Of a stretch of DNA of 64,000 nucleotides, positions 1 to 20,102 are shown one piece after another. The stretch spans positions 178 through 64,177 of the forward strand of contig JBGPUE010000010.1 of assembly GCA_041491005.1 (NCBI GenBank), given 5' to 3'. The notes beneath the pieces were generated by a model. The model was not told the DNA's origin. It did no database searches and was given only the letters and a program-made list of their open reading frames with translations. Within the stretch, counting starts at the first letter, position 1. Each line of letters opens with the position of its first letter. This DNA comes from Candidatus Binataceae bacterium (lineage in GTDB: Bacteria > Desulfobacterota > Binatia > Binatales > Binataceae). The translations under genes were made by a program, and so were the position numbers.

Positions 1-196
1 CCCCAGGGGGAAGCACGATGTCTACATTCAGGTAAGTGTAATAGACCGCCACTGAGTGATTCGCAGCAGCAATGTGCGTGATTATGAGTCACGTGTGCTC
101 CAAGCGACTCCATCGTAGCAATGGACACCCTTGGCATATCAGCTTTGCCGACTCGGCATCAGTTGCTGTATGATTCACGCCGCCTAGGGGGAACAA

Positions 197-2293
197 TTGC
201 CCACGTTAACCGACATGCGCGCGCTAATGCGAGACCTCGCCGCCGAGCCGGCTCACAGTCAAAGACGGAGCAACCTTCCTCGCGACCAGGCACACTCACT
301 CGAATCGTCCGAAGCGCAAGAACAGATAGCAACGACAGATGACATGGCATCACGTCTGAGAGATTCCGAAGAGGAGCGCGCCGAGATTCTCAACCGCCTC
401 CAGTTTGCTTCACTGAGCCAACAGCATCTCGAGCAGCGAATCCTGGCCCTGGAGAACAGTTTTGTTTCCCGCTGCTTTCGGTCACTGGGCCGGGTCTACG
501 ATACCACCCGGGCGAGACTCGCCTACAAACTCGCCAATTCCCGCTTCAACCCTTACTATCTGAAGCTCAGGCGCACGGACCCACGAGGACGCCTTTACCG
601 GCAGTGGGCGCAGCTCGAGGAGGCATGCGCCCCATCACCCGAGTGGCATCGGCAGCAAGCGCATCGATGGCACTATCGCCCGCTGGTCAGCATCGTTACG
701 CCGGTGCACAACCCCAAGCGACAGTGGCTGGATGCCGCGGTCTCCTCGGTTGTCGGTCAAACGTACGATAACTGGGAGTTGTGCGTTTGCGACGACGCTT
801 CCCGCGAGGAATGGGTGGCCAAATTCCTCGACGCTAAAGCAAAGGCTGACTCTCGCATCCGGGTTGTCGGGTCAAACACGCCTATCGGCATCTCGGGCGC
901 TCTCAACCTCGCCGGAAGCCTTGCCCGCGGCGAATATGTAGGCTTCCTTGACCATGATGATCTCCTAAGCCCCTACGCTCTCCATTACGTCGTCGAGGCG
1001 CTTCAGGATTCGAACTTCGATCTCATCTACACAGACGAAGACATCGTGAACGAACAAGGAAACCGCATCTTGCCTAACTTTAAGCCAGGATGGTCGCCGG
1101 AGCTGTTGGCCGCCTGCATGTACATCAATCATTTCATGGTGGTATCGCGGCGGCGGCTCGATCAGGTTGGTTGGTTTAGATCTGAATGCGACGGCGCCCA
1201 GGACTACGACCTCGCCCTGCGCCTCAGCGACCTTACGCCGAGCGTTCAGCACTTGCCGCGCGTCCTGTATCACTGGCGTCGGCATGAGGGTTCGTCGATA
1301 GCTGATTCATCGGCGAAGCCTTATACTCACAACGCGGGGCGCCGCGCCCTCGCGGACGCCGTTGAGCGGCGTGGCCAGGACGCGGAAGTGGAAGATGGCC
1401 CGCGCCCGAACACGTACCATCTCAAATACCGGCCGTCCCGCACACCGTTGGTCAGTCTTATAGTTTGTTCGAGGCGCCACAAACTGCTTAGGCGCTGTCT
1501 ATCCGCGTTGAAATCCAGAACTGATTATCCAAACCGTGAAATCATCGTCGTCGAGCACTCGGGCGACGACGAAGCGATAGAGAAGCTGATCGAGCGCTTC
1601 GCGTGCCGGCGGGTTGTTTACTCGGCACCGTTCAACTTCTCATCAATGAACAACAGCGGAGTTGCGGTCGCCGAAGGCGAAGTGCTGGTCCTTCTGAACG
1701 ATGATGTCAAGCCGCTCGACTCGCGCTGGCTTGGCTATCTGGTGAGCCAGTTGGAGCGCCCTGAAGTGGGCGTCGTAGGCGCGAAGCTGCTCTACCCTTC
1801 CGGAGCGATCCAGCACGCGGGCTTGGTCATCGACGCGCTTGTCGGGGCGGCGCATCCCGGGCGCGGTTCCTTCACCAGTGGCTACTGGCCCTGGCTGGAT
1901 CTCACGCGCGATGTTTCCGCCGTTACCGGAGCATGCCTTGCGATTCGTAAGGACCTTTTTGAGCGGGTAGGTGGTCTGGACCCTTCGTTTCCGATGAACT
2001 ACAACGACGTAGATCTCTGCCTTAGAGTGAGGCAGTTGGGTTTCCGCGTTGTCTACGAGGCACGTGCTGTATTGTGCCACTATGAGGCCAGCACTCGCGC
2101 GCCAGGCATCGGCTACAAAGAACGGGAATCGTTCTTCGGGCGCTGGCCAGAGTCGTTCGCAAAGGGGGACCAGTACTACAATCCCAACCTTACTGCCGAG
2201 GCCGAAGTGTTGCCGGACTTAGAAGTGCTTCAACGGCGGGTCAGCGCTAGGCAAGTGACGGCGTTTTCTGGCACGCAGATCGCTCGATCCTAA
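197..2293 (+). CDS. Two-domain family-2 glycosyltransferase with an N-terminal coiled-coil segment
   Basis: Two GT2 cores, each with a DxD-type motif: (1) VSIVTPVHNPKRQWLDAAVSSVVGQTYDNWELCVCDDAS ... GFLDHDDLL; (2) VSLIVCSRRHKLLRRCLSALKSRTDYPNREIIVVEHSGDD ... LLNDDVKP. The N-terminal ~100 aa are heptad-like (RLRDSEEERAEILNRLQFASLSQQHLEQRILALENSF). The start is uncertain (TTG at 197, ATG at 215). Confidence 0.8.
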   Translation: MPTLTDMRALMRDLAAEPAHSQRRSNLPRDQAHSLESSEAQEQIATTDDMASRLRDSEEERAEILNRLQFASLSQQHLEQRILALENSFVSRCFRSLGRVYDTTRARLAYKLANSRFNPYYLKLRRTDPRGRLYRQWAQLEEACAPSPEWHRQQAHRWHYRPLVSIVTPVHNPKRQWLDAAVSSVVGQTYDNWELCVCDDASREEWVAKFLDAKAKADSRIRVVGSNTPIGISGALNLAGSLARGEYVGFLDHDDLLSPYALHYVVEALQDSNFDLIYTDEDIVNEQGNRILPNFKPGWSPELLAACMYINHFMVVSRRRLDQVGWFRSECDGAQDYDLALRLSDLTPSVQHLPRVLYHWRRHEGSSIADSSAKPYTHNAGRRALADAVERRGQDAEVEDGPRPNTYHLKYRPSRTPLVSLIVCSRRHKLLRRCLSALKSRTDYPNREIIVVEHSGDDEAIEKLIERFACRRVVYSAPFNFSSMNNSGVAVAEGEVLVLLNDDVKPLDSRWLGYLVSQLERPEVGVVGAKLLYPSGAIQHAGLVIDALVGAAHPGRGSFTSGYWPWLDLTRDVSAVTGACLAIRKDLFERVGGLDPSFPMNYNDVDLCLRVRQLGFRVVYEARAVLCHYEASTRAPGIGYKERESFFGRWPESFAKGDQYYNPNLTAEAEVLPDLEVLQRRVSARQVTAFSGTQIARS

Positions 2294-2408
2294 CCTGCGC
2301 ACGGGAAGCACGGGGTGCTCCTGCGCAAAAGATTCGTGATGCCAGTGGGCTGCGCCGAGAATTTGGAGCCGGGTCCAGCGGCCTCGAGAGAGGAGTCGAC
2401 GCTTCAAG

Positions 2409-5400
2409 ATGGCGAGCGACAGGCACAGCCCGAGCACGCAGGCGGCAGGTAGTCAGGGATTGGAGGTCAAGCCCGACGGTATCCGCGCTGACGGCGGTTC
2501 GGGGCGGCAGGCCGCTGCGATGCGATCCGAGATCGTTTCACCGGACGGCACGGAGCTCTCTCGTCTCTATAACGAGCACTATTTCCAGACCGGTTGCGGC
2601 CCGATCCCTTACGATCGCACGGAACCTTGGCTCACGTTTTTTGGAAACATTGCGGAACAGGTGATCCGTAGCCTCCGGCCGCGCAAGGTTCTCGACGCCG
2701 GCTGTGCGATGGGATTCCTCGTCGAGTCCTTTTGGGATCGAGGTGTCGAAGCTTGGGGGATAGACATCTCTCCTTACGCCATCTCCAGGGTTCGACCTGA
2801 CATGAGGCCGTTTTGCGCAGTTGGTTCGCTTACCGATCCGCTGCAAGGCCCCTTCGATATAGTCGTTTGCACCGAGGTCATCGAGCACATTCCCTCAGAG
2901 CATGAACGGACCGTGGCGGAGAATCTGTGTGCCGCCACCAGCACAATCCTCTTCTCTTCCACGCCCTCTGACTTCGCGGAGGCGACCCACTTCAACGTCC
3001 GGCCGCTTATCTACTGGCTGAGACTATTCTCCGAGTTCGGTTTCTGGCCAGATCTACTATTCGATACGAGCTTTGTCGCGCCTCACGCAATGCTGCTCAG
3101 GAAGAGCGAACAGCGACTGCCGGAAGAAGTGCTGGTGCTGTTCGCCGAGACCCTCCGTCACAAGGCGGCAATTCATGAGCTCAACACCCAGCTCGGTTCG
3201 GCAACCAGTGCATTGCAACAGGCGCGCGGCGATCTCGAAACGGTCCGAGCTCAGGAAGGGCGTGTCCGGCAAGAGACCGTGAGGCTCAAGCAAGCACTCA
3301 ACGCCGCCGAGCGCCGCCTCAGCGATACCTTCGCCAGCCCGGGCTGGAGAGTGATCGAGCGATACCGCGGCTGGGTTCAAAGGCAGCGACGGCTCCGCCC
3401 GCGATTATTCAATCGATACGAGAGAGTCGCGCTCTGGGCGCTTAGGCGGATAGCTCACGAACAGCGCCCAAGTAGACAGCCTGATAGAGGCCGTCGCGCG
3501 ACCGACCAACCTGTGACGCCCGACAACGATCCATCGGAGCCTCCGGCAAGTGCAATCGCGGAGGCCCAAGAACGTCCCGACCAAAGCATCTCCCGGTTCC
3601 TGCTGATCATCAGCGGCTGCCCAGGCGATGCCTACCGGTATCGCGTCGAGCACCAGGCGGAGGAGCTTCGCCTGCTCGGGTTGTCTGTCGAGGCCGCCCT
3701 ATTCGACGCAGTCGACTACACCAGCGTCATAACTCAATACAGCGCCTTTGTTCTCCATCGGGTGCCGCACACTTCAGGCATCGAGCAGTTCATCGATCGG
3801 GCAAAGAGGCTGGGCAAACCCGTTATCTTCGATACGGATGATTTGATTTTTAGCGAGAGCTTCATCGGAGACATTAAGGCAATACGTGACTTCGCGCCCG
3901 ACGAGTACAATCTCTACATAGATGGCGTGAGGCGCTACCACAGAACGCTCTCGCAATGCGCAGCCGCAATCGTTACCACGGAGCCTCTGCGCGACCGGGT
4001 CAAAGAGTCATTCCCCGATCGGCCTGTGTACGTCAATCGAAACGCCGTCAGCGACGAGATGCTCCAGCAGGCCGACTTCGCGCTCGAGCATATACCGAAA
4101 ACTGACGATGGTCTGGTCCGAATTTTATACATGAGCGGAACCAGCACACACAACGATGACTTCGCCCAGTGTGTTCCGGCGCTCGCGCGAATACTCGAGG
4201 CGTACCCGAACGTGCGCCTTATGATTGTCGGTCATCTCGACGTACCTGAACGTCTACGTAGCACGGTGGACCGGCTGGAGATTAGTCCGTTCATGCCATG
4301 GCAGGAATTGCCAGCGCTCATGCGCCGCGCAGACATCAATCTTGCGCCGCTCGAGCTGAATAACGCCTTCACGGAATGCAAGAGCGAACTGAAGTATTTC
4401 GAAGCCGGTCTGCTGGAGCTTCCGACGGTGGCCTCCGACCTGCCCGCCTATCGAGTCGCGATCACCCACGGCGAGAACGGGTTTCTGTGCCGAAGCGAGC
4501 AGGAGTGGTTCGAAACGCTTGAGCGGCTGGCGCTGGACCCCGCGCTGAGACGACGGGTCGGAAGCCGGGCGCGCACGGACGTACTCGCCCGTTACACAAC
4601 CCGCAGTCGTGCCCCTCAGCTCGCGACGGCGTTGCGCCGGATATTCACTGACCTCCGCCTCAATGCTCAAGGCCGTCTTTCTGTGGCGATCGTGATGCGA
4701 GCGCCTATAGCGCAGACGGGGGGAGGGTACCGGAATATCTTCGCCCTTGCGAACCATCTTGCGGCACGCGGACACGACGTACATCTGTATGTCGAGGCGA
4801 TTGCTCACCTCGAGGGAATGAACGATGCTCAGATAGTCTCGTTTTGTCACCGACATTTCGGAGAGAGTGCGGCTCAAATTCACGTTGGCCACGATCAGAT
4901 TCTCGCCAGTGACATTGCCGTCGCCACCAACTGGCCCACGGCCTATGCCGTCACCGCGCTCGAGAGCACGAGATGCAAGGCGTACCTGGTTCAGGACTTC
5001 GAACCGGATTTCTACGATCGGGTGGATCCGGCCCATGAACTGGCAGAACGGACCTACGACCTTCCGCTCAGGAAGATCACGTTGGGGAAGTATCTCCAGA
5101 AGCTGTTTTGCGAGCGTGACCGCCTGCCAACCCACCACATCCCCTTTTCCATTGACTCATCAATCTACCGCAACCTCAACACTCGGCCCCAATCGCCCGT
5201 CCGAGTCCTGTTCTTTGCGCGGCCGGGCCTGAAACGGCGCGCGTACCCGGTCGGCGTGAAAGCCTTGCGAATCTTGGCGCGCGCGTGCCCTGAAGTTGAG
5301 ATCGCGTTCTACGGTATGGTCGAGCGAGAGGAACTGGGGTTCGCCTATCAACACCTCGGGGAATTGTCCTCATCCGAACTCGCGCGGGAGATGAACCGCA

Positions 5401-6629
5401 GTCACATTCACCTCTCATTCTCCTTGACCAACATCTCGTGGGTGCCTTTCGAGGCGATGGCGTGTGGCTGCGCCGTCGTCGAAGCCAGGGTTCCCACCGT
5501 CGAGTCGTGGATGGAAGGGGAAGGCACCAACTCGCTGCTGGTTGACCCGGAGCCGAGAGCCGTCGCAGACGCTCTCATCACGCTCGTTAGAGATGCCGGC
5601 TTGCGCAAGCGGATAGCGGCCAATGGCGAAAAGCATGTAGCAAGGATCTCGTCGAGTTGGGAAGCGGCCTGTGCCCAGTTTGAAAGCATACTGCTTGACG
5701 CAGTATTCAAACAGTATCTTCCTACAGAGGGAGCGCTAATCACATCGCGAGACGGCCGCTTCGATGGGAAGATATTCTACGTACGCGGCGGGAGGCGTCG
5801 CTGGGTGCAGGATCTGGCACGGGCAGGGGAAGCGGGGTTGCGCACTACCGACGGCGTGTTGCGGCTGTCCGACGATGAGATAGCCAAGCTACCGCTGGGC
5901 GGGTACGTTCCTCGCGACTGGACGCTCGCTGATTGGAAATCGCCGCCGGCGACGGCACCGCTGCGCGAGATCGCAGCGTCAAGACTGACAGGCTCCGGCC
6001 TTGAGTTCGGAGCAGGCGACAATCCTTTCCCCACCCCATTGCACTGCGAGGTCCGCTACGTCGATAGGCTGCCACAGGAAGAGTTTGCCGCGCAGTATCA
6101 TCCAAACGAGAACATCGACGCCGTACGGCCTGATATGATCACAGGCCTTTGCCAAATGGAGGGCATTTCAAACGAGAGCGTCGACTTCGTCATCGCATGC
6201 CATGTGCTCGAGCATACGGCAAATCCGCTTCTTGCTTTGCGAACGGCATACTTGCGTCTGAAGCCGGGCGGCCAGTTGGTGCTCGTCATTCCGGACAAGC
6301 GCTATACCTTTGACCGGCAGCGCGAGCTGACTCCACTCGAACACCTGATTCTAGACTACGAGTCGCCCTCGCCTGACAGAGATCGTCAACATTGGCAGGA
6401 GTGGTACACGAAAGCCTTTCCAGTGTCTCCTGAGCAGATCGACGGATCAATCGCGTCTGCGTTGGAGCGCGACGCTGACATTCACTACCATACCTGGACC
6501 TACGAGAGTTTTACGGAAATGGTCGAATATGCGCGCCGCGACCTCGCTCCGTGGTCCGCCGTGTGGTCCCATCCTGTACGAAGAAATACCGAGGAGGGAA
6601 TCGAGTTCTACTTCGTCCTGACAAAATAG
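2409..6629 (+). CDS. 1406-aa multidomain glycan-assembly protein: SAM-methyltransferase / coiled coil / Pro-rich linker / GT4 / GT4 / SAM-methyltransferase
   Basis: N-terminal class I methyltransferase Rossmann motif VLDAGCAMGFLVE...DIVVCTEVIEHI. Coiled coil around aa 235-305 (HELNTQLGSATSALQQARGDLETVRAQEGRVRQETVRLKQALNAAERRLSD). Two GT4 (GT-B) units with EX7E-like segments ECKSELKYFEAGLLELPTVASD and VPFEAMACGCAVVEARV. C-terminal methyltransferase domain LEFGAGDNPF...FVIACHVLEHTANPLLALRTAYLRLKPGGQLVLVIPDKRYTFD. Confidence 0.8.
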   Translation: MASDRHSPSTQAAGSQGLEVKPDGIRADGGSGRQAAAMRSEIVSPDGTELSRLYNEHYFQTGCGPIPYDRTEPWLTFFGNIAEQVIRSLRPRKVLDAGCAMGFLVESFWDRGVEAWGIDISPYAISRVRPDMRPFCAVGSLTDPLQGPFDIVVCTEVIEHIPSEHERTVAENLCAATSTILFSSTPSDFAEATHFNVRPLIYWLRLFSEFGFWPDLLFDTSFVAPHAMLLRKSEQRLPEEVLVLFAETLRHKAAIHELNTQLGSATSALQQARGDLETVRAQEGRVRQETVRLKQALNAAERRLSDTFASPGWRVIERYRGWVQRQRRLRPRLFNRYERVALWALRRIAHEQRPSRQPDRGRRATDQPVTPDNDPSEPPASAIAEAQERPDQSISRFLLIISGCPGDAYRYRVEHQAEELRLLGLSVEAALFDAVDYTSVITQYSAFVLHRVPHTSGIEQFIDRAKRLGKPVIFDTDDLIFSESFIGDIKAIRDFAPDEYNLYIDGVRRYHRTLSQCAAAIVTTEPLRDRVKESFPDRPVYVNRNAVSDEMLQQADFALEHIPKTDDGLVRILYMSGTSTHNDDFAQCVPALARILEAYPNVRLMIVGHLDVPERLRSTVDRLEISPFMPWQELPALMRRADINLAPLELNNAFTECKSELKYFEAGLLELPTVASDLPAYRVAITHGENGFLCRSEQEWFETLERLALDPALRRRVGSRARTDVLARYTTRSRAPQLATALRRIFTDLRLNAQGRLSVAIVMRAPIAQTGGGYRNIFALANHLAARGHDVHLYVEAIAHLEGMNDAQIVSFCHRHFGESAAQIHVGHDQILASDIAVATNWPTAYAVTALESTRCKAYLVQDFEPDFYDRVDPAHELAERTYDLPLRKITLGKYLQKLFCERDRLPTHHIPFSIDSSIYRNLNTRPQSPVRVLFFARPGLKRRAYPVGVKALRILARACPEVEIAFYGMVEREELGFAYQHLGELSSSELAREMNRSHIHLSFSLTNISWVPFEAMACGCAVVEARVPTVESWMEGEGTNSLLVDPEPRAVADALITLVRDAGLRKRIAANGEKHVARISSSWEAACAQFESILLDAVFKQYLPTEGALITSRDGRFDGKIFYVRGGRRRWVQDLARAGEAGLRTTDGVLRLSDDEIAKLPLGGYVPRDWTLADWKSPPATAPLREIAASRLTGSGLEFGAGDNPFPTPLHCEVRYVDRLPQEEFAAQYHPNENIDAVRPDMITGLCQMEGISNESVDFVIACHVLEHTANPLLALRTAYLRLKPGGQLVLVIPDKRYTFDRQRELTPLEHLILDYESPSPDRDRQHWQEWYTKAFPVSPEQIDGSIASALERDADIHYHTWTYESFTEMVEYARRDLAPWSAVWSHPVRRNTEEGIEFYFVLTK

Positions 6630-6764
6630 AGCGCGACCGGACCTGGCAAAGAACATTCTCCGCTCGCATTCTGCCACACTCGGCGCCGATGCTTAGTTGA
6701 ATGCTCGACGTCATACGATGACCCTCGCAAGCAATCGCTTGTCACACTTCTCAAAGGATAGAGA

Positions 6765-7499
6765 ATGATAACGCGCGCGGACTACCAGCGGAATAGGTTC
6801 GCTTTCCTCACCGGTCTAACGGACGTGAAGAAAGGCCTCGGTTTGGAAATTGGCGCCGGCGATCTGCCCACGGTCCTGCCCGGCGCCGGCAGATGCCTGC
6901 ATGCAAACATGTACGGCAAGAGAGATCTGGTGACGCTCTTCAATCTTCCTGCCGAGCAGGTGCCTGAGGTCAATTACGTAGTGAGTCGGCGGCAGCCCCT
7001 GTCGGAGCAGATTGGATTGCAAACCTTCGACTACGTTTTTCTGGCCCACGTGATTGAGCATGTGGCCGACCCGATTGGTTATGTCAAGGATCTGACAAAT
7101 CTCTTGAGACAAGATGCGCTGATCGTGATGGCAGTTCCCGACAAGCGCAGAACGTTCGACAATCCCCGACCGGCAACTGCGATTGAGCATATCCTCAGCG
7201 ACTATCACGAGAGAGCCATGTACCCGTCGGTGGAACACATAATGCAGTTCGCACCGTGCATCATCGACGAGCTCAAAGGCAAAGATTCGGTCGAGCTATA
7301 CCAATGGGCACAGGCCAACCACGAAAGTGGTGCGGCAGATGTCCATTGTCACGTTTGGACAGACGAAGACTTCTTCCGCCAAGTCGACGAGATCAGACGA
7401 GCTGGTCTTTGGACCGGGCTGACAGTCGTGGCCAAATGGCCGAACAGTGGTGACTTCAACGAATTCATGATCGCGTTGAGGTACACGGGAGGGCGATAG
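6765..7499 (+). CDS. Class I SAM-dependent methyltransferase, paralogous to the C-terminal domain of the upstream 1406-aa protein
   Basis: GLEIGAGDLP...YVFLAHVIEHVADPIGYVKDLTNLLRQDALIVMAVPDKRRTFDNPRPATAIEHILSDYHE aligns colinearly with the C-terminal MT domain of ORF 2409-6629. Good SD (AAAGGATAGAG) before the ATG. Confidence 0.75.
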   Translation: MITRADYQRNRFAFLTGLTDVKKGLGLEIGAGDLPTVLPGAGRCLHANMYGKRDLVTLFNLPAEQVPEVNYVVSRRQPLSEQIGLQTFDYVFLAHVIEHVADPIGYVKDLTNLLRQDALIVMAVPDKRRTFDNPRPATAIEHILSDYHERAMYPSVEHIMQFAPCIIDELKGKDSVELYQWAQANHESGAADVHCHVWTDEDFFRQVDEIRRAGLWTGLTVVAKWPNSGDFNEFMIALRYTGGR

Positions 7500-8577
7500 G
7501 GGTACTGTCGGTGTTGGTGTGAATTGGAGTACATCCGCCAAGAATCGTGGCGCGGCGAGTTTCGCAAACATGCGCTGTTCGGCTTGAGCGCCCCCGGCCC
7601 TTCGGGCTGGTAGTAGAATGCCCACGATAGTCGCCCCAGTGCTGATGAGGTCGAGCGCCAGCCGCGCGCGACCACCTTGAGCAAAGCCAGATCTGGCCCC
7701 GGCGACGTGGGCGCCTGATTCCCGTTCAGGATGATGCGACTCACTCCGCCTCCGCAAGCGATTTCGAACGGAACTTCGAGTGGCGTGAGCTCCAACTGCT
7801 CAGGCGTTTTGGAATGAACTTCCATCGCTGAGTCATTCGTGCGACAAGGGTCGATGCTGATCCGAAGTCGCCCCTTCGCAACCACGACCTTCGGACAACA
7901 AGACGCAGTATCCGGTGGCGCTCGGACTCGTCGACAGACTTGAACCGCGCCATAGCGGCTCTCGCGCGCTCATCTTTGGACAAGGTCTTGAGCGTGGAGT
8001 CGATGACCAGCTGTTCCAGCTCGTGAGCTGCGACACGTGGCAGGCTACCGGCTTCTTCGGGCCGATGCTGAACGACTGCCTGACTTACATAGTAGCGATA
8101 GCGGCGGCCTCCCTTACTCGTATGCGGACCGATTCAGTTGTTCTTCTTAGCGCGCGCTCCCGCCTGATGCCCGTTTGCGCCACCTCGCTTCGTGATCCGC
8201 ATTGCAGCCGTTTGGACATCACCAGAACCCACAACGCAAGTAGTTCTTTCTTGCCAAGTCCGCTGACCAGATCTGTCGGCATTTTCGGCAACGAAGCCGA
8301 TCGCCGCCGATCAAGTCGACGCCGACGCCTCTGAGGACAAACTCCGCACCCGCGCCGGAAAGCTTTGGAGTATCCGGACACATCGGCGCCTCCGATTCGC
8401 ACGATGCTTCACCGCCCTGCCACCACGACCTTCATCGTTATAAGACTTTAGAGATAATCTTAATAATTCATGAGACGTCATAGTGGGTCAAGACCATCGA
8501 GTCTCCCCGGTCGCCGCCAGAGCAACTAGCGCCCTGCCGGTCACCACATGGCGACGAGGTACGTCTCGTTCCCTCGA

Positions 8578-11500
8578 TCATCCGAGGGTGATGCGTACTC
8601 GATGGGTCACGCCGTCGTTAGCCAGGGGGATAACGGGTCGGTTTCTCGACAGAGCTTCGCCGTCGAGCTCGATGGAGGCAATTCCGCGACTCACTCCGCG
8701 CGGGTTCTCCACCGCGATCTCATAGCGCGCAGAATGGTATAGGAAGACGATTTCGAAGCGTGGCCAAGCCTTCGGCACACACGGATCGATGACCAGGGTT
8801 GCGCCCCGCAAACGAAATCCGAGTATCCGCTCAAGGCCCACCCGATACATCCACGCGGCCGAGCCAGTGTACCAAGTCCATCCACCGCGTCCGACATGGG
8901 GAGGCGTAGCGTAGATGTCGGCACAAGCGACGTACGGTTCCACCTTGTAGCGATGAATGCCGGCGCGCGTGCTGGCGTGATTGATGGGATTCAGCATCGA
9001 GAATAGCTCGCCGGCTTTGTCTCCCTCGCCCAGCATGGCGAATGCAAGCACCGACCAAATTGCGGCATGTGTGTACTGGCCACCGTTTTCCCGGATTCCA
9101 GGTGGGTATCCTTTAACGTATCCAGGGTCGAGCGGTGCCAGATCGAACGGAGGGGTGAAGAGTAGGACCAGTTTTTCGTTCCGGCGGACGAGATATTTCT
9201 CCACCGCCGCCATCGCGGTTGCAGCGCGAGCCGGATCGGCGGCACCGGAGATCACTCCCCACGATTGCGCGATCGAATCAATTCGACATTCGGTACTCGA
9301 AGCCGAACCGAGCGGTGAGTCGTCGTCGAAGTAGCCCCGCCGGTACCAGTCGCCATCCCAGCCGTCTCGCTCAAGGGATTGCTTGAGAGCGGCCGCGTGT
9401 CGGCTCCAGTTTGCAGCGCGCGCATTCTCTCCGCGGTCATCGGCCAGGTGAGCGAAGTCGGAAAGCGTGGAATAAAGGAACCAGCCAAGCCAGATGCTCT
9501 CGCCTTTTCCCTTCTCACCGACCCGGTTCATGCCGTCGTTCCAATCGCCGGTGCCGATCAGTGGCAGGCCGTGGTGACCCACCGCGAGACTCACGTCAAG
9601 GGCCCGGGCGCAGTGCTCGAAGAGCGTGACGCGTTGCTCGGAAACCATCGGTCGAAAGTACGATTCGTGCTCGTCGGCACGGAGGGTTGGGCCTTCGACA
9701 AAGGGGACCATCTCGTCGAGGACTGCGAGGTCGCCTGTGACCTCCACATAATGGGCTGCCGCATACGGCAACCATACCCGGTCGTCGGAGATCCGGGTGC
9801 GAACCCCCTGGCCAGATGGCGGGAGCCACCAATGCTGAACGTCGCCCTCGGCGAACTGCCGCGCGGCCGCACGCAACAGATGCTCCCGCGTCACTTCAGG
9901 CGTCGATGCAGCGAGCGCCATCACATCCTGAAGCTGGTCGCGAAAGCCGTAGGCGCCGCTCGCTTGGTAAAACGCCGACCGAGCCCACACGCGGCATGCC
10001 AGTGTCTGGTAGAGCAGCCAGCGGTTCATCAGAATGTCCATCGCTCGGTCGGGTGTCTTCACTTGAACTGCGCCGAGGATCTCGTCCCATTGCCGAGTGA
10101 CCGCCCTGAAGACCGAATCCAGGTCTGTGGTTCGGTAGCGCGTGATCAAGGAAAGCGCCTCCGCCTTCGTCGCCGCCTCGCCGAGAAAGAAGACAATTTC
10201 GGCCGCACTGTTCGGCGCAAGCTGAAGCTGAGTCTGCAGGACGCCGCAGGGATCGAGACCGGCGCCGACCCGATCGGAGAGCGGCGTTGCGCTGGCGAGC
10301 GCGGCCGGAGAATCGAGCGTGCCGTTGCGGCCAACGAACTCCGTGCGGTCGCCGGTCCAAGCGCTTTGGCGTCCGGCGAGGTCGGCGAACGCCACGCGAC
10401 TACCGAAATCGTTACTCCGAGGGTTCCGCGCAAGCATCGCTCCGGTCGTCGAATCGATTTCCGTGACGACGAACGGCGCAGAAGTGATGCGGGAAGCGCC
10501 GAGCACCCACTCCACGTATGCGGTGACCGAAAGACGCCGCGATCGCGCCGAGAGATTCCGAATCTTCAACCGGGAAATCTTGATCGGATCCTCGGGGGAT
10601 ACATATTGCAGAAGTTCGAGCGAGATCCCGTGCGAAGTGTGCTCGAAGCGGCTGTAACCTTGGCCATGCCGAACGACGTACGGCGAGGTCTCCTCGCGAA
10701 TCGGCAGAGCGGTGGGACTCCAGAACGCACCTGTCGCTTCGTCACGAACATAGATCACCTCGCCCGGAGGGTCGGAGACGGGGTCGTTGGACCAAGGAGT
10801 GATCTGGTTCTCGCGGCTGCTGATCGACCATGTGTAGCCAGAGCCGGCGGCCGACACTTGGAAGCCAAACGAGCGATTCGCGATCACATTCACCCATGGC
10901 GCCGGTGTCCATAGCGCCTCGCTGAAGATTGTCACGTATTCTCGCCCGCCGGCGGCGAAGCCGCCGATGCCATTGAAAAACTCCAGGCTCGTTTGGGGCG
11001 GCGTAGCCTTCGGCTGTTCGTTCGCCGGCGCAGACTCGCGTCTCGGGGGCGGCGCGATGGCGGGTTGAGATTCCTCCAGGCGATTGACCTGCTCGGTGAG
11101 GCTTCCGTGGTGGCTGAGAAGCACCGCCCGGGCGGTGCTCTGAAGCAGGCTTCGCACCTCGACCGAGATCAGATCGGAGCGCAACACAAACACTGCTCCC
11201 CGCGCCGCTTCTCCGTCGGCCTGCGGCCGCGATTGGTTCGCACGGACCAGCGCTTCCAACGTGGCCTGCAGATCCTGATCGTAGGACGAAGGCTTTTCAT
11301 TCAGAATCACGAGATCGACGTCGAGCTGCTTCATCCGCCAGTATTCGTGGGCGCGGACCAATTGCCGAACGATCTCTCGATCCTCTGCTTCATCGATCCG
11401 GACCAACACGATCGGCAGGTCCCCGGAGATTCCGTGGGCCCATAGCGTCGAAGATCCGCGCTCGCTCCGCTTGAGCACCTCGGACGAAGGCCGCATCGTC

Positions 11501-14500
11501 GGGTTGGCATAGATGACGTGATTGGCGATGCGCTGGAAGAGGTGCGCTTCGTCGGGACTGACGCCGAGATGGTGCAGCTCCACCTGAGCCTGCGTCCAGG
11601 CCAGAGTGACCGCGCGCTCGAAGGCTGTAAAGTCGTGGTGCTTGTCTGCCAAGTCAAGCGCTTCGACTCGGGAGGGTGCGATCAGGGTCCAGAATGCGAC
11701 GCGCGCCCGGCCACCCGGCGGAATTCTTAAACGGTGGCGAAGGCTGAAGATCGGATCGAGCACGGTGCCGACCGTGTTGGAAAGCGGCCGGCCGTCGATC
11801 ACGGATATCGGCGTTCGGATCCCTCGCGCACGCCCAAGGAACGCCGCCCGGTCGGTCTCGAATTGCAAGTCGCCCACCGTCTCGCCTTCTACTACGGCAA
11901 GGTGGGCTGCCCAGACCGGCGCCTCGCCGGGCGACCGCAGCCGCCGCGTTGCCATCACAGCGCCCACGTCGGCGACGAATTCCGTCTGCACGAACAGCTT
12001 GGAGAAGGCGGGGTGCGCGGCGTCTTCCGCTGGGGGCGCCAAGACGACCTCAGCATAGGAGGTCACCTCGATTTCCCGATACCGGTTTCCAAGGTTTGAG
12101 ATCGATACGCGGCGAACCTCGGCGTCGTCCTCGGGCGAAACCGCGATCTCGAGTGTTGTCGTGAGCGTCCCGTCGCGCCTCGTGATTTCGGCTCGATCCT
12201 CGGAGAACACCACCCCGTAACTATCCGGCTCGACGCCGGTCGGTTGATATCCCGCCGACCATACTTCGCCGGTACGCACATCGCGCAGAAAAACGTACGT
12301 TCCCCAGGAGTCGCAGGTAACGTCTTCTCGCCAACGCGTGACCGCGAGGTCCCGCCAACGGCTGTATCCGGAACCCGCTGCAGTGATCATCACTGCGTAT
12401 CTGCCGTTCGAGAGAAGGTGCGTGCGCGGAATCACGTCGTGTGGCGATCGGAATCGTCGCAGCATCGGCGCAACGATCTCGCGGATGTTGGGGGCCACCT
12501 TCACTTCCTCGGCACGCGGACGCGCAACCAAAACGTCGCGCGGAGTTCGTTCTTGCAGCAAGAGTTCCGTCGCCTGCATGACTGGCGCGGCGTGAAAACG
12601 GGCGCGCATCGTTCCGTTCCGGAGAGCGTCGTCAATCGCGACCAGAGTCATCCCCTGGTGATGCGCCATAAAAGCTCGAACGACCGCCACGTCTTCGCCC
12701 TCAGGGAGGCGCGTCGGCGTGTAGTCAAGAGCCTCATAGTAGCCATAGCGGCCGAGGCCACCGGCCGCAGCGAGACGTGTGAAGTTTCGCGCCGCAGCTT
12801 TGGCATCTACCATCGCGGCGAGGGCCGTTGCGTAAGGGGCGACGACGACGTTCTCGCTGAGTCCGCGCTTGAGCCCCAGTCCAGGGACGCCAAAATTTGA
12901 GTACTGATAGGTGAGCTCCAGATCTCGCGCGCTGTAAGCCGATTCCGAGACACCCCACGGCACGCCGAGCTCGGCGCCATACTTCATTTGCCGGCGGACG
13001 ACGAGGCGATTCGACTGCGCGAGCAGGCTCCCCTCCGGTGCGCGCATCACCAACGACGGCATCAGGTACTCGAACATCGAACCCGACCACGAGATCAGGG
13101 CCGAACCGCGATCTACCGGCGTCAGGTCGCGCCCGAGCCGGAACCAATGGCGCGCCGGCACGTCTCCCTTGGCGATCGCCACGAAGCTGGCCAAGCGTGC
13201 CTCAGAGGCGAGCAAGTCATAGCAGTTTGGATCGAGGCTGCCTTCCGCGACCCGGTACCCAATCGCAAGAAGTTGCCGCGCTGGGTCGAAGAGGAAGCCG
13301 AACTCCATGGCCTCGAACATTTTCCCCGCCATTTCGCCGAGCGCCGCGAGGCGACGTTCGAGCACGCGTGCGGCGTTCGCGGAACGTTCGAAGGCGTCAA
13401 TCAGAGCGTCGGCTCGCACCACCGCGGCAGATACTCCACGGGCGTGCGGGTCAAGTTCCGATCGGTAACGCGTCAGGCCTCTGATCGCCTCTTCGCAGTG
13501 ACCCGGCAGATCGGCAATGGTCGGAACGGATTCGAACAGATAGCCGAGCACCTCCTCCAGCGGAGCGTCTCCATCTACCGCTCTCTCAGCGGCGACGAAC
13601 GCGACGTCGCCCGCGAGCTTCGCCCATGGCATCAACTGTTCGACGTCGCGCTGATGACTCAGGATCGACGCCCGCACCGCTTCTACCCAGTTCAGCACTT
13701 GGGCGCTAGCGTCGTCTCCCCGTTCCTGGTTGAGCGTCCACGCAATGTCGACGGCCGTGTGGGCGTCAAGCGCGAGCCCCGCAAGGCGCCTTCCAACATC
13801 CGCCGGAGTCGTGGCAGGACTTCGCAGCGAAGCGGTGAGAGCGTCGAGTGCGTCCTCGATATGCTTTCGAGTTACCGTTTGAGTCCGCCGATCGTCAGCG
13901 AGCAAACGCAGACACTCGCGGGCGATTTCCAGCGCGTCATCGATCCCGGCGAGCCATCCCGGCCTCGGCACTGGACCGCCGATCATCTCCCGCAAAGCGT
14001 TCTCAAGGGCGATCAGGTGTCCCGCCAGATTCCCGCTATCCACAGACGAGACATATTTGGGGTCTAGCGGACGAAGCTTCCGCGTGTCGTACCAGTTGTA
14101 GAAGTGGCCGTGGAAGCGTTCGAGTCCGCTCATCGTCGTGAGAGTCGCGTCCAACCGCTCCAATGTTTCGAGCACACCCAGCCAGCCGAAATCGTGCGCG
14201 GCGGTCACGGACAGAAGATACAATCCGAGGTTGGTGGGCGACGTCCGATGAGCCAGCATTGGGATTGGTTCTTCCTGGAAGTTGTCAGGCGGAAGCATGT
14301 GATCCTCCGCGGTGACGAAGGTCTCGAAGAAGCTCCAGGTGCGGCGGGCGATGAGCTTGAGTGTCTGCGCATCTGTCTCGGAGGGCGGATTTGGGCCCAC
14401 CATGGGCGGTGGAAGGCTCGCCCATCGCGCGACCGCCGGCGATAGCATCCACAGGATCACGAATGGAGCCGCGATCGGCCATGACCCACCCCCCAAGCAT

Positions 14501-17442: not shown

Positions 17443-17518
17443 GCCGCGCAGGGTCGCGAGAGGTCAGACAATCTGGCCGGGCTGCGGTCCTGGAATCATT
17501 CCCGCGAGGTCGGCATCC

Positions 17519-17806
17519 TTACCGATTGCCAGTTCGGTTCTTGGCTCCGAAGCTCGATTCGCGGGGTTTGGCTTCGTTCACCTTGATGTTCCTGCCCTTG
17601 AGCTCGGTATCGTTGAATTGCTGTATCGCCTTGGCAGCGTCGTCCGCACTTGCCATTTCGACAAAGCCGAAGCCCTTGGATTGGCCGGAGACCTTATCCG
17701 TTATTACAGCCACACTTTGAACCTGACCTACCTGAGCGAAAAGTTCTTCGAGGTCGCCCTGAGTAACCGAATAGGCCAGATTGCCTACGTACAATTTGCT
17801 GGGCAT
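17519..17806 (-). CDS. Small RNA-binding protein with a single RRM (RNP-1/RNP-2) domain
   Basis: RNP-2 LYVGNL and RNP-1 KGFGFVEM. 95 aa. Strong SD GGAGGG 8 nt upstream of the ATG. Same strand as cgs and 76 bp upstream of it. Confidence 0.85.
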   Translation of the reverse strand: MPSKLYVGNLAYSVTQGDLEELFAQVGQVQSVAVITDKVSGQSKGFGFVEMASADDAAKAIQQFNDTELKGRNIKVNEAKPRESSFGAKNRTGNR

Positions 17807-17845
17807 TTATTGCCCTCCATAAGCTGTGCCGGGGAGTTCTCGAAC

Positions 17846-17875
17846 AGAAAACCCGGGCTTATTCCCGGGTCTAGA
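17846..17875 (-). terminator. Rho-independent-terminator-like hairpin (ACCCGGG-aataag-CCCGGGT followed by TTTTCTGTT), oriented on the minus strand
   Basis: Read on the minus strand: acccgggaataagcccgggttttctgttcg, a 7-8 bp GC stem, 6-nt loop and U-tract. It lies about 45 nt upstream of the RRM gene start, so it is either a terminator for an unannotated minus-strand transcript or a leader attenuator. Confidence 0.35.
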
Positions 17876-18502
17876 TGAAAGGAACAATCCAAGCGTTACA
17901 ACGCGCAGCGTATGCTTTTCGGGCCGCTAATGATACGGACACAAGCTTCGTGGCCAGTCGTGTCCCCTTTGATGCGAAATGTTCAACCGTGTTGGAGTCT
18001 CCTTGCATCTACTGAGAATTCCGAAAGCCAAGGGTCTTGCAATTCGCCGCTCCTGCGCTTGGCAAGATAGAGGTTCGTCGACGACACAATGTGCCTGACG
18101 GTGACCCGCCCCTTGGCCGGCGGTGCACACAAGACGATGAAGGTCGCGGTTACGGTCGGCGATTTCACCGCAGCTTCATCGCGGCCGCTGCTGGTCGACC
18201 CGATGGGCGCCGAGCAGTATGCGTTCTAGCCGGCGGGGGTCGCCCCGCCCCACACCGGTTGCTAGGCGACGACCCAACTGTTGCAAGTTGCGGCGCCGTA
18301 GGAAACGGATCTCCGCTTTGAGCAGGCCGGCGAGTAAAACTCAAGGGGCTCTCAGGAACCCATCTCCTCTACCGGGCGCTCTGGTAGTCGAGAGACAAAC
18401 GCTGGCCGCTCGGCTGCGGGCTGTCAGCGCCCCAGCTTCTCTGTGCGGGACGCAGGTAACCGTGTAGTTTGACTCGAAGTCTGTCCGTGAAGGAGACAAG
18501 TC

Positions 18503-19183
18503 ATGGCGGCGGCAGCATCGAGCACACCATCGCAGATCATCCGGATCAGCGAACGCCAATGGGAACAAATGTCACCCACGATCAAATTAAAGAGTCTGTG
18601 GTCCGATCCCGCAACCAAACGGCGCGCACAGTTAACTCGCTTCGAGCCCGGCGCGGTGTTGCCGATGCATCGTCACATCGGCGACGAACTGCTCTACGTA
18701 ATCGAGGGAGCAATTTCTGACGAGTCCGGGACCGTTCTTGCAGGCAGCGTGGGCTATCGACCCAACGGATGCGTGCATTCGGTAAGCAGCAAGACCGGCG
18801 CTACCGTGTTCGCGATCATCACCGGCGGCATCGAGCCGGCATCCGAAATCGGCAACGCGCCGCGCTCACAAACCCTCGTGCTGAGTGACATAGCGTGGGT
18901 CGACGCGATGGCGGGCGTACGTCAGAAGCCGATTTGGACCGATCGCGAGACGAAGCGGCGAGGCCTTTTGGTGCGCTTTGAACCTGGCGCCAGGCTTCCG
19001 CTTCATCGGCACGTCGGGGACGAACTGATCTTCGTCATCGAAGGCTCAAACGCGGACGAGTCCGGTGAGGTGATGACCGGTGACATGAACTACCGGCCCA
19101 ACGGATGCGTACATAGCGTTATGAGCAGGAATGGCGCGACGGCGCTGGCGCTAGTAACTGGCGGCGTCGAAATGCTCGAATGA
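18503..19183 (+). CDS. Tandem-cupin protein (two ChrR-like cupin_7 domains), no anti-sigma zinc domain
   Basis: Two colinear copies: ...RFEPGAVLPMHRHIGDELLYVIEGAISDESGTVLAGSVGYRPNGCVHSV... and ...RFEPGARLPLHRHVGDELIFVIEGSNADESGEVMTGDMNYRPNGCVHSV... Confidence 0.7.
   Translation: MAAAASSTPSQIIRISERQWEQMSPTIKLKSLWSDPATKRRAQLTRFEPGAVLPMHRHIGDELLYVIEGAISDESGTVLAGSVGYRPNGCVHSVSSKTGATVFAIITGGIEPASEIGNAPRSQTLVLSDIAWVDAMAGVRQKPIWTDRETKRRGLLVRFEPGARLPLHRHVGDELIFVIEGSNADESGEVMTGDMNYRPNGCVHSVMSRNGATALALVTGGVEMLE
18575..19133 (+). repeat. Intragenic tandem duplication (two ~260-bp cupin-coding units) within ORF 18503-19183
   Basis: The protein-level repeat (aa ~25-112 vs ~123-210) is about 55% identical. 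Confidence 0.55.
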
Positions 19184-19197
19184 GCCGATGGCATTGG

Positions 19198-19986: not shown

Positions 19987-20102
19987 CTCCTCGTTCTGCT
20001 TGAAAAGCCATGGCGCAGAGAAACGCTCGCGTGCCGCAGACGCAGACCCATGCTATCGCGCTGCCGCCGCAGACACTCGACTACCGGTCGTAGAGCTTCT
20101 TC

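Follow-up and report, generated by a model that had tools for sequence, protein, structure and literature searches.

The 64-kb stretch of DNA analysed here (the window) comes from an uncultured soil bacterium and contains three adjacent open reading frames of the same orientation, which encode two multidomain enzymes and one single-domain methyltransferase (MT); all coordinates given below for these genes refer to the + strand. The first gene (197..2293, TTG start) encodes a 698-aa protein in which, according to the ORF and Pfam analyses, a short helical N-terminal region is followed by two glycosyltransferase (GT) modules of family GT2 (GT-A). The product of the second gene (2409..6629, ATG start) has 1406 aa and comprises an MT, a helix, a linker, a GT4 module, a WsaF-like GT4 module, and another MT, while the third gene (6765..7499, ATG start) encodes a free MT of 244 aa. 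The same three products are obtained when the genes of a metagenome contig are called independently. The profile-HMM check proposed in the sequence-only reading of this DNA was run with Pfam and recovered the GT2, GT4 and methyltransferase domains; with the ORF list, it confirms the count of seven catalytic domains in three co-directional genes as well as the ORF coordinates. By Kyte-Doolittle hydropathy, in which the 19-residue mean reaches 1.3 at most, all three proteins are devoid of transmembrane segments, which fits the expectation for cytoplasmic assembly enzymes. The window carries neither wzm/wzt nor rml genes, nor any gene for a priming GT or a ligase, and no ABC ATPase motif occurs anywhere in it; the earlier statement that a transporter and a priming GT are missing from the window holds across the full 64 kb. 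Because the locus adjoins the contig end and the window is devoid of exporter genes, the linkage to an exporter can be drawn only from the relatives of these genes.

The N-terminal part of the 698-aa protein (344..511, residues ~50-105) consists of a short heptad-like stretch and a basic amphipathic motif. The heptad-like part spans only ~35-40 residues (~50-92), and its value of 8.3 in our crude, home-made heptad score lies above the 99% threshold derived from shuffled sequences (7.6) but below the 99.9% one (8.7). The basic motif, SRCFRSLGRVY, is similar to SPGWRxIxRYR, which is found in the 1406-aa protein and its homologs, and the hydrophobic moment of the 698-aa protein is highest at residues 86-105. 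GT2 module 1 (689..1396, residues ~165-400) matches PF00535 at 165-292 and PF10111 at 165-359, while module 2 (1451..2095, residues ~419-633) matches PF13641 at 419-633 (75.6 bits); PF00535 scores 118.9 bits over two stretches. The metal/nucleotide motifs read from the sequence are LDHDD (DXD type) in module 1 and LNDDV (NXD type) in module 2, so that the protein has two PF00535-type domains with a DXD-type motif in each, as members of the GT2 family do. The GT2 domain of the chondroitin synthase K4CP is its top PDB match (E 3e-25).

Residues 1-45 of the 1406-aa protein are predicted to be disordered, and its homologs begin near residue 38-40, which indicates that Met38 may be the true start. 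In the AlphaFold2 (AF2) model, which took in residues 1-1190 (mean pLDDT of 82), the N-terminal class I SAM methyltransferase (2544..3113, residues ~46-235), a candidate chain-terminating cap enzyme, adopts a Rossmann fold (pLDDT ~90); Pfam identifies Methyltransf_23 at residues 88-189 (85 bits). The profile of its family matches the MT domain of WbdD at E 2e-6, but UbiG scores better, and thus the likeness to WbdD is at the superfamily level only. The MT is followed by a continuous alpha-helix of 71 residues (3123..3335, residues 239-309), a candidate coiled-coil spacer of ~10 nm. In the predicted structure, this helix lies between the N-terminal MT and the GT modules, and its heptad signal exceeds the 99.9% shuffle threshold for residues 252-282 only. 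Of the long heptad segments attributed previously to two of the proteins, that of the 1406-aa protein corresponds to this predicted helix, while that of the 698-aa protein is reduced to a short and weak one. Compared with characterised rulers, the 71-residue helix is short, which speaks against a ruler.

Two basic amphipathic helices (3339..3455, residues 311-329 and 331-349 in the AF2 model) come next and form a candidate element for docking to a membrane or to a partner. The conserved motif SPGWRVIERYR, at residues 310-320 and thus at the start of this element, recurs in homologs; the hydrophobic moment of the whole protein peaks at residues 331-349, and the net charge over residues 306-350 is +9. 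The Pro-rich linker noticed earlier (3456..3593, residues ~350-395) is confirmed, as it contains 8 Pro in 47 residues and is disordered in the AF2 model (pLDDT <50 for residues 349-392).

The linker leads to two GT-B modules. Module 1 (3594..4658, residues 396-750) is GT4-like, has a GT-B fold in the AF2 model, the Glyco_trans_1_4 domain at residues 572-708 (84 bits in Pfam), and an invariant FDTDDL motif. An E. coli plasmid encodes, in a cluster that reads rfbBADC-wzm-wzt-MT/GT, an MT/GT protein of 1181 aa, one module of which shares 31% identity with module 1 over 338 aa. Module 2 (4659..5738, residues 751-1110) is a WsaF-like retaining GT4 according to Pfam, PDB and Foldseek comparisons. 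Its WsaF_N/WsaF_C region lies at residues 831-1056, and it belongs to the WsaF-family GT4 model by its match to WsaF_C (PF22772, 60.0 bits vs. the cut-off of 27), whereas the match to WsaF_N (PF21374, 21.7 bits) is under the cut-off of 27. The WsaF structures 2x0d/2x0e match this module at E 6e-10, with a Foldseek TM(target) of 0.69. Mutagenesis of WsaF indicated the importance of D171, F176, Y247, R249, R254, K302, Y329, and E333 (PMC3898925). Five of these residues are kept in module 2, namely D863 (D171), F868 (F176), R938 (R249), R943 (R254), and E1015 (E333), while Y247 is replaced by Phe and Y329 by Trp, which are still aromatic, K302 by Glu, and, additionally, H326 by Asn. The proposed rhamnose signature PHPSYPPLE is absent from module 2, where the aligned stretch is TNISWVPFE, and this replacement makes the sugar donor uncertain. 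TNISWVPFE resembles the TNLSLLPLE of a fucosyltransferase and the TNLSYLPVE associated with 6-deoxyaltrose (PMC3898925), and its closeness to these relatives suggests that the donor may be another 6-deoxyhexose. A small beta-rich connector (5739..5978, residues 1111-1190) without a family match follows module 2; its strands in the AF2 model lie at residues 1110-1153 (pLDDT ~59-75), and it is disordered past residue 1164.

The C-terminal class I SAM methyltransferase (5979..6626, residues 1191-1406; AF2 pLDDT of 86) corresponds to a second Methyltransf_23 stretch in Pfam, and Foldseek matched it to generic class I MTs only (E 6e-9). The free 244-aa MT also matches Methyltransf_23, at 27.8 bits vs. 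the cut-off of 27. In a BLASTP comparison, it is 27% identical over 193 aa to residues 1195-1377 of the 1406-aa protein (E 6e-19), and both share the GLEFGAGDNP motif; by this measure the two MTs are true paralogs. All three MT domains have the Rossmann-like fold and a glycine-rich motif of class I SAM enzymes (LDAGCAMG, LEFGAGDNP, and LEIGAGDLP). Orthologs of the free MT adjoin GT4-WsaF genes in three related loci (L004, L016, and L087).

Among the top 120 database homologs of the 1406-aa protein, 30 are single chains of the MT-spacer-GT4-WsaF type and 55 are single chains of the MT-spacer-GT2-GT2-WsaF type. The presence of GT2-GT2 within the latter indicates that the double GT2 module of the 698-aa protein is fused in elsewhere, and such a fusion speaks, by Rosetta-stone logic, for joint action of the 698-aa and the 1406-aa protein. 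A gene of the double GT2 type, either stand-alone or fused, accompanies a GT4-WsaF gene in 13 loci. The equivalent of the spacer varies in homologs from 116 to ~460 aa and consists in 53-66% of L/E/A/Q/R/K, as expected of a tunable ruler. Extra C-terminal MT domains occur in about nine of the 120 homologs, a single chain having as many as three or four MTs, and in four homologs (P0002, P0016, P0019, and P0030) MT domains flank the GT pair on both sides, so that this feature, previously regarded as unmatched, has counterparts. Neither does the claim that the whole arrangement matches no described enzyme hold, as WsaE (PMC2943079) and Klebsiella O7 ORF6 (PMC11231755) have the same MT-spacer-GT-GT layout. 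Thus, the 1406-aa protein belongs to a known and widespread kind of enzyme, of which its architecture is a domain variant that has yet to be characterised, and does not constitute a new system.

Gene neighbourhoods of the relatives point to export by an ABC transporter. BLAST searches revealed Wzm/Wzt genes within 10 kb in 42 of the 80 related genome loci, and they are the most recurrent neighbours across the family; in representative loci, Pfam assigned Wzm to PF01061 and Wzt to PF00005, the latter with or without PF14524 (Wzt_C). Judging by the best BLAST hit, Wzt is of the carbohydrate-binding Wzt_C type in 27 of these 42 loci, while in about a dozen related loci it is without the cap-binding Wzt_C domain; in L018, a Wzt bearing Wzt_C was confirmed by Pfam. 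Upstream of the multi-MT homolog P0016, at a distance of 7 kb, lie wzm and wzt, and the locus of P0019 contains Bac_transf and a gene of the Wzy_C ligase family. Genes of the rml group lie beside several relatives, including the 64%-identical P0002, which has rmlC and rmlD before it and a gene of the double GT2 type after it. The order in Nostoc (L016) is wzm, wzt+CBM, GT4-WsaF, the free MT paralog, GT2, GT4, rmlA, rmlC, and rmlD, and related loci of Bacillota and Paenibacillus have the order rml, wzm, wzt+CBM, and GT4-WsaF. The earlier proposal that polymerising GTs and a terminal MT on a coiled-coil spacer follow the logic of ABC-transporter-dependent systems is supported by the Wzm/Wzt genes in the 42 loci, by the P0016 locus, and by the rml genes. 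No ABC exporter was found within 10 kb in several loci of the closest relatives (L004, L005/L085, L087, and L089), where genes of the GT-C (PMT_2), Bac_transf, or GtrA-GT2 kind take its place; a GT2-GtrA-MT arrangement was also noted there.

Taken together, these results lead us to favour, with moderate confidence, the view that the three genes encode a cytoplasmic, membrane-peripheral polymerase-terminator/modification set for a lipid-linked, O-methylated 6-deoxyhexose (rhamnose-type) surface glycan that depends on an ABC transporter. As to the sugar, the rmlC and rmlD genes beside P0002 and the rfbBADC genes of the E. coli plasmid cluster speak for this type. An undecaprenyl-diphosphate-linked chain would be extended on the membrane's inner face by two pairs of modules, the GT-B modules of the 1406-aa protein and the GT2 modules of the 698-aa protein, while the basic amphipathic helices 311-349 would anchor the 1406-aa protein at the membrane or at a partner. 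The 71-residue helix would keep the N-terminal MT ~10 nm away, so that the non-reducing end would be methylated only when the chain is long enough, and this methylation would halt chain growth. The C-terminal MT and the free paralog would put further O-methyl groups on cap or backbone residues. However, judging by the sequence, any of the three MTs, or none of them, may be the terminator. A Wzm/Wzt exporter, a priming phosphoglycosyltransferase, and the sugar-nucleotide genes would be expected elsewhere in the genome of the source organism, probably just past the contig edge.

The same pathway might operate without a ruler: the helix would serve oligomerisation or scaffolding, the three MTs would decorate the internal backbone, and enzyme balance or the exporter would set the chain length. 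We consider this fairly unlikely, although it agrees with the helix of just 71 residues, the chain-length independence of WsaE methylation in vitro (PMC2943079), the activity of P. aeruginosa CPA methyltransferases without WbdD-like length control (PMC3560663), and the dozen or so related loci whose Wzt lacks Wzt_C. The constant position of the MT at the variable helical spacer's distal end, which is the arrangement of all characterised terminators (PMC11231755), and the cap-binding type of Wzt in 27 related loci argue for a terminator. A departure from Wzm/Wzt export altogether, with the product being a protein-linked or envelope glycan (PMT_2, Bac_transf, GtrA-type) or a polymethylated polysaccharide of the cytoplasm, comparable to the methylmannose polysaccharide of mycobacteria, seems distinctly unlikely. 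It would account for the exporter-free loci of the closest relatives and for the three methyltransferases of the system, and 7qsg, a methylmannose polysaccharide mannosyltransferase, is among the best structural matches. The latter match, however, reflects a generic GT4 fold, as it appears alongside MshA, PimA, and WsaF, and Wzm/Wzt genes are the commonest recurring neighbours in the family as a whole. Moreover, GT-C, GtrA, and GT2 form a known three-component system of side-group addition after export (PMC11127046), and their presence would thus imply export rather than exclude it.

A narrower variant, in which the MT-helix-GT-GT-MT enzyme of the Binatota-like lineage and its acidobacterial relatives acts without Wzm/Wzt and makes a cytoplasmic, heavily O-methylated, hydrophobic deoxyhexose polymer, similar in function to the polymethylated polysaccharides of mycobacteria, or a glycan passed on to a GT-C/Bac_transf route, is in our opinion very unlikely; were it true, the three MTs would build a multiply methylated sugar made by no characterised terminator. 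Finally, the convergent gene at 8578-17442 encodes a GH94, cyclic beta-1,2-glucan-synthase-like protein, whose product had been named as a possible acceptor. That the three proteins modify this glucan is suggested by adjacency only (the convergent genes are 1.08 kb apart) and appears exceedingly improbable, as a homolog of the GH94 giant was found in no related locus outside the same organism, the G+C content of the glycan locus (0.55-0.60) is lower than that of the synthase gene (0.61-0.65), and the relatives are tied to lipid-carrier and exporter genes instead.

The family illustrates the freedom with which bacteria distribute one set of modules over stand-alone and fused genes, namely capping methyltransferases or sulfotransferases, a spacer helix, paired GT2 modules, GT4, GTs of the WsaF-like type, and additional MTs. 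The window adds an arrangement that is uncharacterised, with MTs at both ends and a free paralog, and, to our knowledge, no glycan chemistry is known from the phylum of the source organism. A study of the system could show whether several MTs jointly produce a single cap with multiple methyl groups or whether some serve the cap and others the backbone, and also whether chains are kept short by a helix that is short. The system represents no new class, since its layout is widespread and its logic is already understood from Geobacillus, Klebsiella, and E. coli.

As regards its described layout, the 1406-aa protein resembles WsaE, an enzyme of S-layer glycan rhamnan synthesis in Geobacillus stearothermophilus NRS 2004/3a, which acts with WsaF and Wzm/Wzt. 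WsaE is composed of an MT and two rhamnosyltransferase domains (PMC2943079), and its methyl cap provides a precedent (PMC2943079, PMC3898925). Its partner WsaF is the best solved-structure match of our GT-B module 2, and the gene order of the related Bacillota/Paenibacillus loci is like that of the slg cluster (PMC2943079). Unlike in the WsaE system, the WsaF-like module is fused in the same chain and has not kept the rhamnose signature of WsaF, a second MT is fused C-terminally, a third is encoded next door, and a separate double GT2 protein is present. Coiled-coil rulers have been described in Klebsiella O7, O12, and O3 (PMC11231755). ORF6 of Klebsiella O7, an MT-kinase followed by a coiled coil and two dTDP-Rha GT2 modules (PMC11231755), is similar by its description in that an N-terminal terminator is followed by a coiled coil and a two-module polymerase; its domain order recurs in the MT-spacer-GT2-GT2-WsaF homologs, and its DXDD-then-NXD order of GT2 motifs in the 698-aa protein. 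However, in our system there is no kinase, the two GT2 modules reside in a protein of their own, and the helix-bearing chain has GT-B modules.

The WbdD-WbdA pair of E. coli O9a and Klebsiella O3 likewise includes an MT protein with a coiled-coil spacer and a membrane-proximal amphipathic region; WbdD recruits a two-module polymerase, and the cap is read by the carbohydrate-binding domain of Wzt. It differs in the kinase of WbdD, the methylphosphate cap, the separate polymerase, and the use of mannose. WbbB of Klebsiella O12 and Raoultella, encoded in an rml-wzm-wzt cluster, also combines all polymerising and terminating activities in one coiled-coil protein (PMC11231755), but it terminates with a beta-Kdo transferase (GT99) and polymerises with GT102 and GT103 modules; a search of PDB sequences with the 1406-aa protein as the query retrieved no chain of WbbB. 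The use of more than one MT for one rhamnan has a described parallel in the CPA of P. aeruginosa, which requires two partly redundant MTs (PA5457/PA5459; PMC3560663), and the TET operon of P. syringae unites wzm and wzt with genes for a bifunctional GT and an O-MT, the GT and MT genes being fused in some isolates (PMC7820976). Unlike in the system described here, the sugar of Pseudomonas CPA is D-rhamnose derived from GDP-mannose, and its MTs are free-standing and have no helix.

Three genes on the + strand, at window positions 197-2293, 2409-6629, and 6765-7499, encode proteins of 698 aa, 1406 aa, and 244 aa, exactly where the sequence-only reading had placed them, and the same products are called on an independent metagenome contig. 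The first of these genes has a TTG start codon preceded by a Shine-Dalgarno-like stretch (AGGGGGA). Pfam mapping bore out all the catalytic domains that had been claimed: two GT2 glycosyltransferase (GT) domains in the 698 aa protein; an N-terminal methyltransferase (Methyltransf_23), a GT4-type module (Glyco_trans_1_4), a WsaF_N/WsaF_C module, and a C-terminal second methyltransferase stretch in the 1406 aa protein; and a class I methyltransferase in the 244 aa protein. This small methyltransferase and residues 1195-1377 of the 1406 aa protein are true paralogs, with 27% identity across 193 residues (E 6e-19). With regard to a specific function of this C-terminal methyltransferase family, a PDB profile search and Foldseek returned only generic class I methyltransferases (TM ~0.5), and NCBIfam only weak UbiG-like hits.

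The AlphaFold2 model of residues 1-1190 of the 1406 aa protein (30-sequence alignment, mean pLDDT 82) comprises a disordered N-terminus (residues 1-45, window 2409-2543), a methyltransferase fold (46-232), a single uninterrupted helix of 71 residues (239-309), two more helices (311-329 and 331-349), a disordered Pro-rich linker (349-392), and two GT-B modules (396-748 and 758-1098) followed by a small beta-rich connector. A separate model of the C-terminal methyltransferase has a pLDDT of 86. Homologs begin near residue 38-40, and translation may actually begin at Met38 (window 2520). The long coiled coils proposed earlier are a fair description of the 1406 aa protein with its 71-residue helix, but an overstatement for the protein with two GT2 domains, where a short, weakly heptad-like region precedes residues 86-105; the heptad score used here is home-made and uncalibrated and serves as a rough check only. 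None of the three proteins contains a membrane-spanning segment. The highest hydrophobic moment in the 1406 aa protein is that of the segment 331-349, the net charge across residues 306-350 is +9, and an equivalent basic amphipathic stretch occupies residues 86-105 of the 698 aa protein.

A conserved motif, S-P-G-W-R-x-I-x-R-Y-R, follows the helical spacer of the 1406 aa protein (residues 310-349, window 3336-3455) and of many of its homologs, in versions such as SPGWGVIRRYR, SPGWQLIRKYR, and SRAWRLAEKCR; a degenerate copy, SRCFRSLGRVY, is present at residues 86-105 (window 452-511) of the 698 aa protein. In both proteins the motif is situated in their most amphipathic, strongly basic part. 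It may be a candidate membrane-docking or partner-docking element; we know of no described function for it.

Homologs of the 1406 aa protein number in the hundreds and are encoded in Acidobacteriota, Chloroflexota, Cyanobacteria, Verrucomicrobiota, Bacillota, and other phyla, the top genome match among species representatives being 55% identical and coming from a Solibacteraceae MAG. When the domains of the window proteins were mapped onto the best 120 of these hundreds of hits, the order methyltransferase-spacer-GT4-WsaF was found in 30, and methyltransferase-spacer-GT2-GT2-WsaF, in which both GT2 modules of the 698 aa type are fused into the same chain, in 55. The full core with the C-terminal methyltransferase was represented by three hits, GT4-WsaF-methyltransferase by two, and methyltransferase-GT4-methyltransferase by four. 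The spacer between the N-terminal methyltransferase and the first GT module ranges in homologs from 116 to ~460 residues and is of coiled-coil-like composition. Additionally, Pfam assigns three or four methyltransferase domains per polypeptide to the homologs P0016 and P0019. Taken with the fusion patterns of the best 120 hits, this indicates that the arrangement in the window is one draw from a combinatorial family rather than a one-off fusion. Good evidence that the 698 aa and 1406 aa proteins act on one common product also comes from these fusions.

In certain homologs a sulfotransferase domain (Sulfotransfer_3) replaces a methyltransferase, at the C-terminal position in P0003 and P0015 (Pfam) and at the N-terminal position in P0041 (Pfam) and in P0043, P0044, and P0046 (precomputed Pfam lists), and it is encoded next door at two related loci (L004, 15828-16598; L090, 8283-10625). 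These occurrences are a hint that the scaffold also makes glycans in which sulfate is a modification or a cap. The unannotated Rhizobium rhododendri chromid NZ_CP117268.1 (locus L092, 8902-14100 and 22576-23511) encodes a 1372 aa fused relative that matches residues 772-1406 of the window protein, namely, its WsaF-like module and C-terminal methyltransferase, as well as two more free paralogs of the latter.

The assignment of the second GT-B module as WsaF-like is consistent in Pfam, in the PDB sequence search (E 6e-10), and in fold. WsaF is a dTDP-beta-L-rhamnose-dependent beta-1,2-rhamnosyltransferase of Geobacillus S-layer glycan synthesis (PMC3898925). In the alignment with WsaF, the acceptor-tunnel residues D171 and F176, R249, R254, and the nucleotide-binding E333 are kept. 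However, the proposed rhamnose signature of WsaF, PHPSYPPLE, is replaced by TNISWVPFE (residues 1007-1015, window 5427-5453), which is closer to the sequences that PMC3898925 gives for a fucosyltransferase and for a transferase of 6-deoxyaltrose, and the donor may therefore be other than L-rhamnose. Together with the rmlC and rmlD genes that adjoin the closest homolog, this comparison is most safely read as pointing to a 6-deoxyhexose donor, which probably belongs to the dTDP-L-rhamnose branch.

For 37 related loci, the flanking ORFs were clustered without prior labels, and the recurrent clusters, annotated by Pfam, include Wzm (ABC2_membrane), Wzt (ABC_tran, often with the carbohydrate-binding domain Wzt_C), nucleotidyltransferases and epimerases, extra GT2 and GT4 proteins, and methyltransferases. 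A BLAST search with these clusters detected Wzm and/or Wzt in the fetched flanks of 42 of the 80 genome loci. The gene order is wzm, wzt with a carbohydrate-binding module (CBM), GT4-WsaF, a free methyltransferase paralog, GT2, GT4, rmlA, rmlC, rmlD in Nostoc (L016), and rml, wzm, wzt with CBM, GT4-WsaF in Paenibacillus and Bacillota loci. The 64%-identical homolog P0002 has rmlC and rmlD upstream and a gene with two GT2 domains downstream; wzm and wzt lie 7 kb upstream of P0016; and the P0019 locus encodes a priming enzyme (Bac_transf) and a protein of the Wzy_C ligase family. In an E. coli plasmid, rfbBADC-wzm-wzt is followed by a gene of a 1181 aa methyltransferase/GT protein, a module of which shares 31% identity with the first GT-B module of the 1406 aa protein. 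An assignment of the latter module as WbbB was rejected, as the plasmid protein gave no WbbB hit and its N-terminus is a TylF-type methyltransferase.

The glycan locus occupies the left end of the window, in which no ABC-type ATPase is encoded over its 64 kb. An exact look-up of the 1406 aa protein recovered no more than two contigs, both short, whose ends fall within ~180 bp of window position 1. Since three independent assemblies, the public NCBI contig of 65,142 bp, a JGI contig, and a Logan contig, all break within ~180 bp upstream of the locus (window 1-196; 1-162 of locus L001), this point suggests a repeat or strain-variable region. In L001, only the last 39 codons of a + strand ORF precede the genes. 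Neither an exact 33-mer scan of the metagenome contig collection nor a search of it with the degenerate back-translation of this 39 aa ORF end recovered upstream sequence, and therefore the exporter and priming genes belonging to this locus remain unseen. The G+C content is 0.55-0.61 over the locus (window 1-8000), with a minimum near the free methyltransferase gene, and 0.61-0.65 in the adjacent glucan synthase gene (8500-16000); the lower value is consistent with a horizontally exchanged, variable locus. The Rfam scan of window 1-20000 detected no RNA families, and promoter and terminator scans gave no more matches than in shuffled sequence. The 1.08 kb that separate the convergent genes for the methyltransferase and the glucan synthase (7500-8577) and the ORFs in or overlapping it (7915-8334, +; 7296-7757, -; 7349-7885, -) have no Pfam or Rfam matches. 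Unrelated metabolic genes lie past the convergent neighbour; genes of a P-type cation ATPase (28146-30722, +) and of KdpB (60852-62894, -; 82-84% identical to Candidatus Binatus and Binataceae proteins) were also observed. The KdpB identities make an uncultured Binatota-like bacterium the probable source of the DNA.

Beyond the domain anatomy and gene neighbourhoods, which are direct observations, we infer a mechanism in which a lipid-linked deoxyhexose chain would be extended by the four GT modules, with the 71-residue helix keeping the N-terminal methyltransferase ~10 nm off. This methyltransferase would cap the chain end once the end reaches it, more methyl groups would be added by the C-terminal methyltransferase and its free paralog, and the finished chain would be moved by a Wzm/Wzt exporter encoded elsewhere. 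The main rival explanation is the same pathway with neither a ruler nor a cap role.

An exporter-independent product is a minor alternative. No exporter was found within 10 kb at several of the closest relatives, where GT-C (PMT_2), Bac_transf, or GT2-GtrA genes are present. At the closest acidobacterial ones, L085 (12330-16967) and L087 (16808-18562), GT-C (PMT_2) genes adjoin the methyltransferase-GT4-WsaF gene, with no ABC exporter within 10 kb; L085 additionally encodes a GT2-GtrA-methyltransferase fusion, and the set resembles three-component systems by which side groups are attached outside the cytoplasm. Modification of a cyclic glucan, which had been suggested as the acceptor made by the convergent neighbour (8578-17442, a GH94 protein like cyclic beta-1,2-glucan synthase), is another minor alternative, which the data disfavour and which is rejected here, since a homolog of this synthase occurs in no related locus.

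The three-gene set represents a known, widespread enzyme class in an uncharacterised domain variant; its source phylum is poorly known, and its exporter context is missing from the window. The observation made in the sequence-only reading is largely confirmed, and the logic of its interpretation is right, but the view that the fusion has no match among described enzymes is wrong, as the same kind of layout is found in WsaE and Klebsiella O7 ORF6. WsaE, a partner of WsaF and Wzm/Wzt, combines two rhamnosyltransferase modules with an N-terminal methyltransferase responsible for the 2-O-methyl cap (PMC2943079, PMC3898925). The profile of the N-terminal methyltransferase of the 1406 aa protein finds the WbdD methyltransferase domain (E 2e-6), but UbiG scores higher, so this similarity is at the superfamily level. 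In Pseudomonas, several methyltransferases serve one rhamnan, and GT-methyltransferase fusions are present (PMC3560663, PMC7820976). Klebsiella O7 ORF6 comprises a methyltransferase-kinase, a coiled coil, and two dTDP-Rha GT2 modules whose motifs are DXDD and NXD (PMC11231755), and in the 698 aa protein LDHDD and LNDDV follow each other in the same order as these motifs.
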